Assembly: GCF_055900595.2 (NCBI RefSeq)
Contig: NZ_CM148325.1
DNA: 64,000 nt
Direction: 5' to 3' (one strand)
The notes under the pieces were generated by a model. It was not told the origin of the DNA, did no database searches, and saw only the letters and a program-made list of their open reading frames with translations. Positions 54,362 through 62,363 of the stretch are shown here, one piece after another. The translations under genes were made by a program, and so were the position numbers. The stretch's first letter is position 1. Each line of letters begins with the position of its first letter.

Positions 54362-54675
54362 TTGGGGCCATTTTGACTCATAGAGGAAAGCATTACGCAC
54401 GAACTTTCTTAGTTTATTATTTGGATTTATATTCTATTAATACATTCTTTTATAGATTTTTATATTGAGCGCGGTGGTTTTTGGAGAGGTGAATGAGGAA
54501 GTTGCTTCGAGACACAGAAACGTTAACTTTACCTATAGCGGAGGTGATGTGAAATTAATTCATAAGAGAAACAATTTACATATCAAACAGTTAGTTGCTT
54601 TATATCGTTTTTTTATATTTTTATGCTTGAGAACAAATACAAAACTTTTTTATGATATGGACAGTTTGGCCCCAA
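54362..54675. promoter_or_regulatory. fimS: fimS invertible phase-variation switch (314 bp) bounded by 9-bp inverted repeats TTGGGGCCA / TGGCCCCAA; contains the fimA promoter
   Basis: Both 9-bp inverted repeats read directly; their spacing gives exactly 314 bp, lying between fimE and fimA as expected. Confidence 0.85.
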
Positions 54676-55796: not shown

Positions 55797-56399
55797 CTAT
55801 AAAACAGCGTGATGCTGTCGTCCTCTGGCTCTATCCCAGATGCCGTAAAAACGCCCTGCATTGCTGGCGGTATACCAGACAGTATGACGAATATTGCGAT
55901 GTCCAAGATAATCCTGGATAAGTCGTGTATCTATTCCCATATTCGCCAAAGCAAAACCACACGAATGGCGTAACATATGCGGATGAATCTCCAGTGATAA
56001 CCCAGCATTACCACCAGAAGTCGAGATAATATGGTAAAACTGTTGCCGAGAAAGCGGGTTCCCCTTACGTGATAAAAATACCCACTCGCTCTCAGCATGC
56101 GGATAAGAAGTACGTATACTCAACCAGTTTTTTAAAGCCTGAACTTCTTTGTTCAATAGCGGGTGCGTTGTTGAAAAGCCTTTTTTTAATCGATGGATAT
56201 ATATACACTTTGCCTTAAGATCAATATCCGAAATCCTCAATCGACAAATTTCACTCGCCCGGAAACCATGAATAAAACAAAGCAAAGTCAGACAATAATT
56301 ACGTGCTGCATGAGGCCCGGTATTTGCTGCTTTAAGGAGTGACTCGATTTCACTATGGGTCAGGAAGTTCCTTTTTTTGTTATCAGCCTTATTCTTCAT
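55797..56399 (-). CDS. fimB: tyrosine recombinase FimB (bidirectional fim switch recombinase)
   Basis: 200 aa; paralogous to fimE (HPHMLRH ... LIQDYLGHRNIRHTV in both). Confidence 0.9.
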   Translation of the reverse strand: MKNKADNKKRNFLTHSEIESLLKAANTGPHAARNYCLTLLCFIHGFRASEICRLRISDIDLKAKCIYIHRLKKGFSTTHPLLNKEVQALKNWLSIRTSYPHAESEWVFLSRKGNPLSRQQFYHIISTSGGNAGLSLEIHPHMLRHSCGFALANMGIDTRLIQDYLGHRNIRHTVWYTASNAGRFYGIWDRARGRQHHAVL

Positions 56400-57412
56400 C
56401 GTTTTCCCTTATAATTACAGACGCGCACTAGCTGTGCTGGGTTAGCAATAATCCAACATTTTAATCCTGATTATGTTTATAAAAGCGAACGTTTGCTTAA
56501 TAACTAACGTAAGTGGACCAGTTCTTCTGAGTGAACTTAAATGGAGTAGCGATAGTTACTTATAATAACTTTGCCATACAAACGCCATGCTCTTGCATGC
56601 TATGTACCTTTATATATTTATCAATGTGATACGAATCTAATAATAACCCTCATCATTAATGCAACTAATCTTATCTATATATCATGTGATATGTTCTGTA
56701 ACAAGTAAAATCAACATAAAAAATTCAGCAAAATTTAATATTCGTTCAACTAGCCGTCTCACATATGACATTATTAGTCAACTGCATTTGCCACAAAATG
56801 GCTATTTCATGGAACGCAGTAATTTCTTAGCGTCTATTATCATGCTAATTCTTAGGTCCCTAGCGATTATTCCTGTCTGGTTCGTCAACTCACGCCATGA
56901 GATTGTTATATTCCTTTTTATCATGGAGATATGGGGGAAAGCAGGCGACGCTTTTTCATCTACATTCATTGGTAAATATGGCTTTGGTCACTACGTCTTA
57001 AACCTTCTTCAATCACAGCTATTCGCCGGGCGCTACGGCAAACAAACTAAGTGAAGCATCATCCTGAAAACACCATCATCAACAAGCCTCTCCAGATCGA
57101 CTTCAGAAGTGACCAGTTACAAGCCACAAACCTGGAAACATATTTCATGATGAGAATTATGCTCAGCCTGATGGCGGGTAAACACTTATTTTCACCAAGC
57201 TCACTGAGTTAGCTTGCAAAGCTTTCCTTGTTTAGATTCTAAATAAATTATCTATAAAACAGATAGTTAAAAGAAAATCTTTAGTTTTTGAAGACCACCG
57301 CAAGTGTTCGTCTGGCTTCACATGGCATCTTCCTCTTAGAAAAAGATCGACATATTTTGTGACACGAATTGCAAATCTGGTTTTGTTGTATGGATTGCGT
57401 GATTTTTGATCT

Positions 57413-57435
57413 GGTATAACAGGTATAAAGGTGCA
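57413..57435. promoter_or_regulatory. NanR-type operator (tandem GGTATA hexamers: GGTATAACAGGTATAAAGGTGCA)
   Basis: Two exact GGTATA hexamers plus a degenerate third, read directly in the large fimB-nanC intergenic region upstream of nanC. Coordinates approximate. Confidence 0.5.
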
Positions 57436-57851
57436 CCACGATAGTCAATGAGACTGGGCATCTCGAAATCTATGGCAAACATCACTTCAGTTCTTTCACA
57501 TCGGGTGATGAAAATGCACTTCAGTCTGAAAGGAATATGAAAATGAGATCAACAGACACTCTATTTTATGACTCTGGGTAAAATGGATTGAGTAAGTGAT
57601 ATCGCTTACGAACATTCAAATCAATCAAACATCAGAAGAGATTTTATACTCAGGTATTTAATCTGGATCTCTGTTTATTTAAATAATGTGGAAAGAGATT
57701 TTTCACAGGAGACATTATACAAAAAATATAAAATACAGCTATCGGTTGCCAAAGACACTATAAGCCTGGCAAAAAATATTACACAACATAAATGCTAATT
57801 GTTTATGCGGGCTTTGTATTGCTTTCTGTATCCTACAAATGAGTGAAATTT

Positions 57852-58568
57852 ATGAAAAAGGCTAAAATACTTTCTGGCGTATTATTACTGTGCTTTTCGT
57901 CACCATTAATTTCTCAAGCTGCGACACTGGACGTACGTGGTGGATATCGTAGTGGAAGCCACGCCTATGAGACTCGACTCAAAGTCAGTGAGGGATGGCA
58001 AAATGGATGGTGGGCAAGCATGGAAAGTAATACCTGGAATACCATTCATGATAATAAAAAGGAAAATGCCGCACTCAATGATGTTCAGGTTGAAGTTAAT
58101 TACGCGATTAAACTTGATGATCAATGGACGGTGCGCCCGGGAATGTTAACGCATTTTAGCAGCAACGGCACACGCTACGGACCCTACGTAAAACTGTCCT
58201 GGGACGCGACAAAAGATCTTAATTTTGGCATTCGCTATCGTTACGACTGGAAAGCTTACCGACAACAAGACTTATCCGGTGAGATGTCTCGTGATAACGT
58301 TCATCGTTGGGATGGATATGTCACTTACCATATTAATAGTGATTTCACCTTCGCATGGCAAACGACGCTATACAGCAAACAAAACGATTATCGCTATGCA
58401 AACCATAAGAAATGGGCGACGGAAAATGCATTTGTTCTACAATACCATATGACGCCTGATATTACGCCATACATAGAATATGACTACCTTGACCGTCAGG
58501 GTGTTTATAACGGCAGAGATAATTTATCAGAAAACAGTTATCGCATTGGTGTGTCATTTAAACTGTAG
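57852..58568 (+). CDS. nanC: N-acetylneuraminic acid outer membrane channel NanC (KdgM family)
   Basis: ORF track 57843..58568 (GTG); start set at in-frame ATG MKKAKILSGVLLL (aa 4) giving 238 aa. Confidence 0.9.
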   Translation: MKKAKILSGVLLLCFSSPLISQAATLDVRGGYRSGSHAYETRLKVSEGWQNGWWASMESNTWNTIHDNKKENAALNDVQVEVNYAIKLDDQWTVRPGMLTHFSSNGTRYGPYVKLSWDATKDLNFGIRYRYDWKAYRQQDLSGEMSRDNVHRWDGYVTYHINSDFTFAWQTTLYSKQNDYRYANHKKWATENAFVLQYHMTPDITPYIEYDYLDRQGVYNGRDNLSENSYRIGVSFKL

Positions 58569-58587: not shown

Positions 58588-59694
58588 ATGAATAAAACAA
58601 TAACGGCGCTTGCTATCATGATGGCTTCATTTGCCGCAAACGCGTCTGTATTACCGGAAACTCCGGTGCCATTTAAAAGTGGTACCGGAGCAATTGATAA
58701 CGACACTGTCTACATTGGTTTAGGTAGCGCAGGTACGGCATGGTACAAGCTGGATACACAGGCCAAAGATAAAAAATGGACAGCGTTAGCTGCATTCCCT
58801 GGTGGGGCGAGAGATCAAGCAACCTCTGCATTTATTGATGGCAATCTGTACGTATTTGGCGGCATTGGCAAAAACAGCGAAGGCTTGACTCAGGTATTTA
58901 ATGACGTACACAAATACAACCCCAAAACCAATAGCTGGGTTAAATTGATGTCGCACGCGCCGATGGGCATGGCGGGCCATGTGACTTTTGTACACAACGG
59001 CAAGGCTTATGTTACTGGCGGTGTTAACCAAAATATCTTTAATGGCTATTTTGAAGATCTCAACGAAGCTGGAAAAGATTCAACCGCTATAGAGAAAATC
59101 AACGCCCACTATTTTGACAAAAAAGCAGAAGATTATTTCTTCAATAAGTTTCTGTTGTCTTTTGATCCCTCTACACAGCAATGGAGTTACGCTGGCGAAT
59201 CTCCCTGGTACGGGACGGCTGGTGCAGCGGTTGTGAATAAAGGCGATAAAACCTGGCTTATTAATGGTGAAGCCAAACCAGGACTACGAACGGATGCCGT
59301 ATTTGAACTTGATTTCACCGGTAATAATTTAAAATGGAATAAACTTGCTCCCGTCTCATCACCAGATGGCGTTGCTGGCGGTTTTGCGGGGATAAGCAAT
59401 GACTCACTTATATTTGCCGGAGGGGCCGGATTCAAAGGTTCACGAGAAAATTACCAGAACGGTAAGAACTATGCGCATGAAGGCCTGAAAAAATCATATA
59501 GCACTGATATTCATCTTTGGCATAACGGGAAATGGGATAAATCGGGCGAATTGTCGCAAGGTCGGGCCTACGGAGTATCATTGCCCTGGAATAATAGTCT
59601 ATTGATTATTGGCGGTGAAACTGCAGGCGGCAAAGCGGTAACGGATTCAGTATTGATCTCTGTGAAGGATAATAAAGTCACAGTGCAAAACTAA
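58588..59694 (+). CDS. nanM: N-acetylneuraminate epimerase NanM (Kelch-repeat beta-propeller)
   Basis: ORF track 58480..59694; start at in-frame MNKTITALAIMMASFAANA (aa 37) giving 368 aa. Confidence 0.9.
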   Translation: MNKTITALAIMMASFAANASVLPETPVPFKSGTGAIDNDTVYIGLGSAGTAWYKLDTQAKDKKWTALAAFPGGARDQATSAFIDGNLYVFGGIGKNSEGLTQVFNDVHKYNPKTNSWVKLMSHAPMGMAGHVTFVHNGKAYVTGGVNQNIFNGYFEDLNEAGKDSTAIEKINAHYFDKKAEDYFFNKFLLSFDPSTQQWSYAGESPWYGTAGAAVVNKGDKTWLINGEAKPGLRTDAVFELDFTGNNLKWNKLAPVSSPDGVAGGFAGISNDSLIFAGGAGFKGSRENYQNGKNYAHEGLKKSYSTDIHLWHNGKWDKSGELSQGRAYGVSLPWNNSLLIIGGETAGGKAVTDSVLISVKDNKVTVQN

Positions 59695-59758: not shown

Positions 59759-60559
59759 ATGAACGCAATAATATCGCCCGATTATTACTATGTTCTTACC
59801 GTTGCCGGTCAGTCTAATGCCATGGCGTATGGCGAAGGACTGCCATTACCGGACAGGGAAGATGCGCCTCATCCCAAAATTAAACAATTAGCGAGATTCG
59901 CGCATACGCATCCCGGAGGCCCCTCATGTCACTTTAACGACATTATTCCACTAACTCACTGCCCACACGATGTTCAGGATATGCAGGGTTATCACCATCC
60001 TCTGGCAACGAATCATCAAACACAGTACGGCACCGTTGGCCAGGCACTGCATATTGCACGGAAATTACTGCCCTTTATTCCTGATAATGCAGGGGTTCTC
60101 ATCGTTCCGTGTTGCCGTGGCGGATCGGCTTTTACCGCGGGCAGCGAAGGGACATATTCAGAACGGCACGGAGCCAGCCATGATGCTTGTCGTTGGGGAA
60201 CGGATACTCCGCTATACCAGGATTTAGTCAGCAGAACGCGAGCCGCACTGGCAAAAAATCCGCAGAACAAATTCCTCGGCGTATGCTGGATGCAAGGCGA
60301 ATTTGACTTAATGGCCAGTGACTACGCGTTACACCCTCAACACTTTAATCATATGGTTAAAGCCTTTCGTAGGGATCTAAAACAATACCATTCTCAGCTT
60401 AATAAAATTACTGACGCGCCGTGGTTTTGCGGCGATACCACCTGGTACTGGAAAGAAAATTTCCCTCATGCGTATGAAGCTATTTATGGCAATTATCAAA
60501 ATAATGTTTTAGCCAATATTATTTTCGTCGACTTCCAGCAACAAGGTGAAGAGGACTGA
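59759..60559 (+). CDS. nanS: 9-O-acetyl-N-acetylneuraminate esterase NanS, apparently C-terminally truncated by a frameshift (266 aa)
   Basis: Start at in-frame MNAIISPDYYYVLTVAGQSNA (aa 10 of ORF 59732..60559). The frame ends at ...FVDFQQQGEED, while a second frame continues without a start codon (TNAPDEDPDDLSTGY ... ILQFWRER, stop near 60728). Confidence 0.7.
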   Translation: MNAIISPDYYYVLTVAGQSNAMAYGEGLPLPDREDAPHPKIKQLARFAHTHPGGPSCHFNDIIPLTHCPHDVQDMQGYHHPLATNHQTQYGTVGQALHIARKLLPFIPDNAGVLIVPCCRGGSAFTAGSEGTYSERHGASHDACRWGTDTPLYQDLVSRTRAALAKNPQNKFLGVCWMQGEFDLMASDYALHPQHFNHMVKAFRRDLKQYHSQLNKITDAPWFCGDTTWYWKENFPHAYEAIYGNYQNNVLANIIFVDFQQQGEED

Positions 60560-61712: not shown

Positions 61713-62363
61713 ATGAATATCCGTCAATCATTACATGACCGAATCTATGCAGAATACCCTCAACAGGCTAAAGATATATTACTGTATTTCCCCACTTATG
61801 AAATTATGCCATCGACCATAAAAATGGTTATGATTAATGAGGTGGTAGCTATAACACCGCAAGAAGATTTTTATACACCAGAGTCTGGTTATTTTACGAC
61901 TGTCGCCCGACAGTTAGCGCTGGCTGGATTATCGGCAAGTAGTGGCGAAGTCTTACTCAACCATGGTATCTACCTGACCTCCGCACTGAAACTACCTAAA
62001 ACACAGATCACAGCCACACCCGCGGAGATCATTCTCTGGTCACCTATTGTAGAATGGGAGCTCGAACTCTTTGCCAATATAAAAGTTATTTTCGTTGGCG
62101 GCGATATCGCGCGAAAATGCCTTAACATCATCGCGAAAAAGCAAACACGTAAACATGCCATCCCTTCAACTCCGACGTACAAACTGATGAATAGCGAATT
62201 AGTCTGGAAAGGAATAAGCATACTTCCTGGATATATTCTTACCGGAAAAAACCTGCTCATTGAAAAGTCAAAAATCGAAATGAATGTCGAACAATTAAGA
62301 AAAGGAATTGCGATTTATCGCAATAGTAACAGTAACCATACGAATAATTCAGTTCATGAATAA
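61713..62363 (+). CDS. hypothetical protein (216 aa), AT-rich orphan
   Basis: Complete ORF in an AT-rich segment between the IS remnant and the helicase gene; no recognisable motif. Confidence 0.45.
   Translation: MNIRQSLHDRIYAEYPQQAKDILLYFPTYEIMPSTIKMVMINEVVAITPQEDFYTPESGYFTTVARQLALAGLSASSGEVLLNHGIYLTSALKLPKTQITATPAEIILWSPIVEWELELFANIKVIFVGGDIARKCLNIIAKKQTRKHAIPSTPTYKLMNSELVWKGISILPGYILTGKNLLIEKSKIEMNVEQLRKGIAIYRNSNSNHTNNSVHE

Follow-up and report, generated by a model that had tools for sequence, protein, structure and literature searches.

The 1,452-bp spacer between fimB and nanC, in the 64,000-nt stretch of DNA analysed here (the window), is very probably the orthologue of the fimB-nanC divergent control region of Escherichia coli K-12, and the imperfect third repeat of its NanR operator, GGTGCA, would be the form that this operator normally has. 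This control region is already known and well studied, is present here in its standard form, and the degenerate third repeat that an earlier note on this DNA took as possibly weakening NanR binding is not a peculiarity of the strain. In this study, orthology, preserved sites and conserved site blocks were read from the sequence, whereas protein binding and regulatory effects are those reported in the literature.

The fimB-nanC spacer and its K-12 counterpart

The earlier note gave the exact position of the spacer, and the length of ~1.45 kb and the AT-rich composition that it stated were confirmed (Table 1); the G+C content of 36.0% compares with 47.3% for the whole window. The wider gene order is canonical (fimH-fimA, fimE, fimB, nanC, nanM, nanS). 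The spacer is colinear with that of K-12 from end to end, with 95.8% identity and a length of 1,452 bp versus 1,455 bp, and it was found at a coverage of at least 80% in 5,020 of the 5,426 complete E. coli genomes, mostly with 95-97% identity.

Table 1. Features of the fimB-nanC region (positions in the window; distances from fimB refer to its predicted transcription start)
Feature	Position	Strand	Remarks
fimB CDS (type 1 fimbrial switch recombinase)	55797-56399	-	Intact, 200 aa; from the ORF list and alignment with annotated fimB of K-12 and other strains
fimB-nanC divergent intergenic regulatory region	56400-57851		1,452 bp, 36.0% GC
fimB 5' leader	56400-56671	-	Predicted transcription start ~56670; block highly conserved among 12 strains
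SlyA operator O_SA1 TTAGCATGATAA	56837-56848	-	Exact match to the published operator (PMC3173223)
SlyA operator O_SA2 CTAGGGACCTAA	56852-56863	-	Exact match to the published operator (PMC3173223)
Candidate NagC operator O_NC2 CATATTTCATGATGAGAATTATG	57139-57161	+	About -469 to -491 from the fimB start; putative assignment
Dam GATC	57345-57348		2 nt from the NagC1 candidate
Candidate NagC operator O_NC1 CATATTTTGTGACACGAATTGCA	57351-57373	+	Overlaps CRP-like TGTGA-N6-TTGCA at 57358-57373; putative assignment
Dam GATC	57408-57411		1 nt 5' of the first NanR hexamer
NanR operator GGTATA-ACA-GGTATA-AA-GGTGCA	57413-57435	+	About -743 to -765 from the fimB start; 417 nt 5' of the nanC ATG
nanC 5' leader	57436-57851	+	Putative, provided that promoter and operator overlap in the manner of nanA; based on resemblance to the promoters of nanA and nanX
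nanC (N-acetylneuraminic acid outer-membrane channel)	57852-58568	+	238 aa, ATG at 57852; heads nanCMS
nanM (N-acetylneuraminate epimerase/mutarotase)	58588-59694	+	From the ORF list and comparison with annotated strains

In K-12, the region lies between the same flanking genes in the same orientation (fimB and nanC, also named yjhA). The NanR operator and the block from 57290 to 57438 are identical in both sequences, the SlyA operators are exact, and both NagC-like sites and both operator-adjacent GATC sites are present here too. The divergence from K-12, ~4% of the nucleotides and three 1-bp indels, is found mainly between the mapped sites, at 56800-57335, and the recognised operators do not differ at all. 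The sequence gives no hint that the region would work differently from that of K-12. The K-12 region, with its operators O_NR, O_NC1 and O_NC2, has reportedly been studied by El-Labany (2003), Sohanpal (2004, 2007) and Condemine (2005). A summary of these operators is given by McVicker 2011 (PMC3173223).

The best match to the 24 kb from 40000 to 64000 among the 5,426 complete E. coli genomes was only 97.6% identical, so the window comes from a poorly sampled E. coli lineage; the spacer alone reached 98.8%. Several observations were made on the neighbouring genes. On the nan side, nanS (59759-60559) is truncated at its C-terminus, with 266 aa compared with 981 nt (326 aa) for the full-length gene of strain SX12, and the same truncation is annotated in EC42405, the best-matching strain. 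Beyond it come two hypothetical ORFs, one frameshifted and one of 216 aa (61713-62363), and then a gene with a UvrD-helicase domain (minus strand, 62877 onward). On the fim side, fimS (54362-54675) has its inverted repeats (TTGGGGCCA) at 54362 (+) and 54667 (-). In orientation it agrees with the MG1655 reference, with which it is colinear, although identity to K-12 over the fimE-fimA interval reaches only 90.5%; exact matches to the IHF consensus occur in this area at 54581 and 54708. Damage to fimB is common in other strains, and fimB of the present window is intact. In SX12, an IS1 element takes the place of fimB and of the fim genes, with a junction inside the spacer at the equivalent of ~56662; fimB is frameshifted in MB50 and truncated in ATCC 25922.

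Operators and conserved blocks in the spacer

The motif that the earlier note placed in the spacer, the 23-mer GGTATAACAGGTATAAAGGTGCA, has a single occurrence in the window (plus strand, 57413-57435), and 100 shuffled sequences contained no copy of it. The core of two hexamers, GGTATANNNGGTATA, likewise occurs only once in the window, where 0.19 occurrences are expected with one mismatch allowed. Lone GGTATA hexamers are present at the chance rate (23 in the window versus 20 expected), and the signal thus lies in the tandem arrangement and not in the hexamer. This arrangement, at least two tandem GGTATA units with a gap of 2-3 nt, is provided by GGTATA-ACA-GGTATA at 57413-57427. The third unit is not the GGTATA that would complete three perfect repeats as at nanA; it reads GGTGCA as in the K-12 nanC operator, and since K-12 has the same unit, its imperfection is no bar to the assignment as a NanR operator. 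The motif is located at the promoter of a sialic-acid operon, upstream of nanC-nanM-nanS, in a promoter module like those of nanA and nanX.

NanR has been reported to bind no more than 5 bp from GATC sites at nanA, nanC and yjhB (PMC5155068), and a GATC is indeed found here 1 nt from the operator; it is retained in all the sequences examined. MEI4B-1023, 1409 and E69 lack the GATC beside the NagC1 candidate, through a G to T change. In K-12, genomic SELEX located NanR in the nanC-fimB spacer (PMC4797297), and in a further genomic SELEX study this spacer was the single NanR target retained (Shimada 2018, PMC5934670).

Both SlyA operators match the published ones exactly, and as these were mapped at -167 to -194 from the fimB transcription start (McVicker 2011, PMC3173223), we place this start at about 56670. 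Counted from there, the NanR operator and the NagC2 candidate fall at the distances listed in Table 1, which agrees with the range of some 760 to 470 bp upstream of fimB that has been published for the NanR and NagC sites (PMC3173223). The alignment with K-12, the distance of the operator from fimB and the published binding of NanR in the K-12 spacer all support the proposal of the earlier note that the motif is the NanR operator, and also its view of the whole spacer as a region responsive to sialic acid and GlcNAc. From the data published for K-12, NanR would be predicted to bind the present operator and to be released from it by Neu5Ac.

For NagC, the two candidate sites have CATATTT-N8-GAATT in common and start 212 bp apart; this pattern has three matches in the window, compared with 0.74 expected. 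We took this pair as the putative NagC operators O_NC1 and O_NC2, with boundaries drawn from secondary statements in the literature and from conservation. The exact limits of the NagC sites, like the nanC start site and the coordinate of the fimB start, are those that we infer. IHF is reported in the literature as needed between the two NagC operators; a search of the interval between the candidates (57162-57350) for the IHF consensus WATCAANNNNTTR with at most one mismatch gave no match, and IHF sites are often degenerate.

The distribution of variable positions follows these assignments. When 12 full-length E. coli spacers were aligned, variation was seen in 212 of the 1,471 columns, concentrated in 56800-57335. 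Only 4 variable columns are found in the 100 bp over the NagC1 candidate, its GATC and the NanR operator, and 3 in the NagC2 block. In the divergent lineage labelled E. coli E69, the block from NagC1 to the NanR operator (57340-57435, 96 nt) is 96.9% identical and the NagC2 block 92.3%, whereas the adjoining spacer is only 55-65% identical. The nanC leader (57500-57851) is also well above this neutral level, with 87% identity. Judged by these alignments, the mapped sites are conserved islands in a fast-evolving spacer.

A CRP-like element (TGTGA-N6-TNNCA) is present in the same register at the nanC, nanA and nanX promoters; at nanC, it lies ~60 bp upstream and overlaps the NagC1 candidate. Moreover, the nanC, nanA and nanXY operators share a 27-nt core, TTGATCTGGTATAACAGGTATAAAGGT. 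At nanA (nanATEK-yhcH), this core is identical, including the GATC, and the CRP-like element is upstream in the same register. However, the third hexamer of nanA is GGTATA instead of GGTGCA, and the distance from operator to ATG is ~38 nt for nanA, compared with 417 nt for nanC, where the operator would have an additional action on fimB at ~750 bp. The NanR operator of nanA was reportedly described by Kalivoda (2003). The nanXY (yjhBC) operator also resembles that of nanC: the nanC and nanX promoters are alike from ~75 nt upstream through the operator, and the leaders are of similar length (~410 nt for nanXY), whereas the third hexamer is GGTATA and there is no fimB partner. The nanXY genes are absent from the window. 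The similarities among the nanC, nanA and nanX promoters suggest that they may represent a duplicated promoter-operator module.

A simple sigma-70 scan yielded fewer sites in the window than in shuffled sequences. It called no promoter for nanC at the operator, as one would expect of a promoter that depends on CRP and has a poor -35 box. An Rfam scan of the whole window, including the nanC leader, detected no family at threshold. The leader contains a 12-codon upstream ORF, MRSTDTLFYDSG, at 57543-57581, 8 nt past an AGGA; it is open in K-12 and in E69, with changes in its residues. Finally, enterobacterial nan operators were also encountered on short contigs filed as a Bacteroides MAG, as Methylobacterium mesophilicum and as a Chryseobacterium isolate. 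Two of these three contigs carry E. coli nanC-type and nanX-type sequences, and this looks like contamination of public assemblies.

The third hexamer and alternative readings of the spacer

The third hexamer is GGTGCA in 11 of 12 other aligned strains and GGTGCG in the remaining one, and the divergent lineage E69 has GGTACA. On a larger scale, a 44-nt segment containing the operator was at least 99% identical in 4,443 of 5,002 genomes, and a 30-nt query made of the GATC and the three hexamers, which is unable to seed on the nanA or nanX operators, gave a 100% match in 4,745 E. coli genomes, ~95% of the carriers. GGTGCA is the species-wide state of the nanC/fimB operator.

We then asked what form the third repeat takes elsewhere. 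In a scan of species-representative genomes with a shared 20-mer, in which the GGT of the third unit was fixed and only its last three bases were free, the first two repeats and the spacers were exact in the nanA operators of ~78 enterobacterial species among the matches listed. The third unit in these matches was GGTATA in 37, GGTATG in 19, GGTACA in 14, GGTCTA in 3 and another variant in 3. Outside E. coli, the matches listed for this 20-mer were almost only nanA operators, and the nanC/fimB arrangement was not traced beyond Escherichia. Among NanR operators, an imperfect third repeat is the common condition.

The near-fixation of GGTGCA in E. coli, within a block that is 97% conserved with respect to E69, could mean that the imperfect repeat has been selected or tuned, such that two NanR dimers are loaded instead of three and the induction threshold or the geometry differs from that of nanA and nanXY. 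Binding data are compatible with this view: an operator with two repeats gave only two NanR-DNA complexes rather than three, this being the sole difference (Horne 2021, PMC8012715). The operator taken for the cryo-EM and binding work on NanR was the nanA (GGTATA)3 (PMC8012715). However, E69 carries GGTACA and one E. coli strain GGTGCG, and shared ancestry could alone produce near-fixation within a single species. Moreover, the third hexamer of nanA drifts freely among the matches listed for the ~78 species, whereas the first two repeats are invariant, which makes relaxed constraint likelier than tuning. We therefore regard tuning as unlikely. A broader proposal would be more speculative still, and we consider it quite improbable: GGTGCA would be adaptive, either because a site for two NanR dimers responds at a sialic-acid threshold of its own or because long-range fimB activation needs this geometry, and the unusually conserved 417-nt nanC leader with its upstream ORF might hold further, as yet undescribed control.

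A second alternative concerns the spacer itself. It contains a 131-aa ORF (56659-57054), and it might be partly coding, either as a gene for a small protein or as the decayed remnant of a sodium:solute symporter, which would explain its unusual length. In favour of this, the stop-free run of 135 codons is longer than in any of 500 shuffled sequences (maximum, 132), the ORF is annotated as 'hypothetical protein' in some genomes, and it gives a weak match to the Pfam SSF family (E = 0.012, 15 bits). However, the ORF is intact in only 6 of the 12 strains, with frameshifts in the other half. The variable sites are distributed as 13/22/20 over the three codon positions, with no excess at the third, and nonsynonymous changes largely exceed synonymous ones (for example, 32 versus 4). 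We rejected a live gene on these grounds. All of the 92 homologues in the database are E. coli copies of the same locus, and they fall to 63% protein identity although the DNA is ~95% identical. The SSF match is below threshold and appears in a single one of the 14 variants; solved structures, searched with a profile up to E = 10, gave no match. The lack of homologues outside E. coli and these two results led us to discard a decayed symporter gene as well. To judge from the pattern of changes, the ORF is clearly not under selection at the protein level; a partly coding spacer is highly improbable, and the description of the spacer as non-coding in the earlier note stands. Over its first ~57 codons, the ORF coincides with the promoter and 5' region of fimB, which are strongly conserved.

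The least credible reading, which we all but discount, is that the third hexamer has degenerated in the present strain, with poorer NanR binding and a weaker coupling of fimB and nanC to sialic acid than in K-12: although GGTGCA has two bases that differ from GGTATA, the third repeat at nanA and nanXY, the same hexamer is found in K-12, in nearly all the aligned strains and in ~95% of the carrier genomes, and a weak site is also argued against by the KD of NanR, 25 nM on a two-repeat and 20 nM on a three-repeat operator (Horne 2021, PMC8012715), and by the rank of this spacer as the single strongest NanR target in the K-12 SELEX (PMC5934670). Thus, of what the earlier note had said of this hexamer, the departure from GGTATA was confirmed, but a weakening of NanR binding specific to the strain was not supported: the K-12 sequence is identical in the alignment, which is the outcome that the note itself had named as refuting it.

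Proposed regulation and significance

With the spacer read as the K-12-type control region, the following scheme can be proposed. NanR, a repressor of the GntR family, would occupy the tandem GGTATA repeats (57413-57435) as dimers that bind cooperatively, as described in the literature. To judge from the similar promoters of nanA and nanX, the operator probably overlaps the -10 and start region of nanC, with a predicted -10 box TATAAC at 57415-57420 and a predicted start near 57427, and because of this overlap NanR would repress nanCMS. From its position ~750 bp upstream of the fimB start, the same NanR is expected from the literature to raise fimB expression, and NagC would likewise raise it from two sites (~57351 and ~57139). 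Sialic acid would free NanR and its catabolite GlcNAc-6-phosphate would free NagC; Neu5Ac was found to lower NanR binding 28-fold (Horne 2021, PMC8012715), and GlcNAc-6-phosphate is described in the literature as inactivating NagC. With NanR binding weakened by Neu5Ac and NagC inactivated by GlcNAc-6-phosphate, nanCMS would therefore be induced and fimB lowered. Less fimB would in turn reduce the OFF-to-ON switching of fimS and lead to fewer fimbriate cells.

The control of this region by sialic acid and GlcNAc has already been established for K-12, and the window adds no functional difference to it. The gain is a modest comparative one: the operator, imperfect third repeat included, is practically invariant in ~4,700 E. 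coli genomes and, across the Enterobacteriaceae, the variable repeat of the NanR operator is the third. In the organism, this region lets E. coli read host sialic acid and GlcNAc, which are signals of inflammation, and respond with a decrease in type 1 fimbriation and an increase in sialic-acid uptake.
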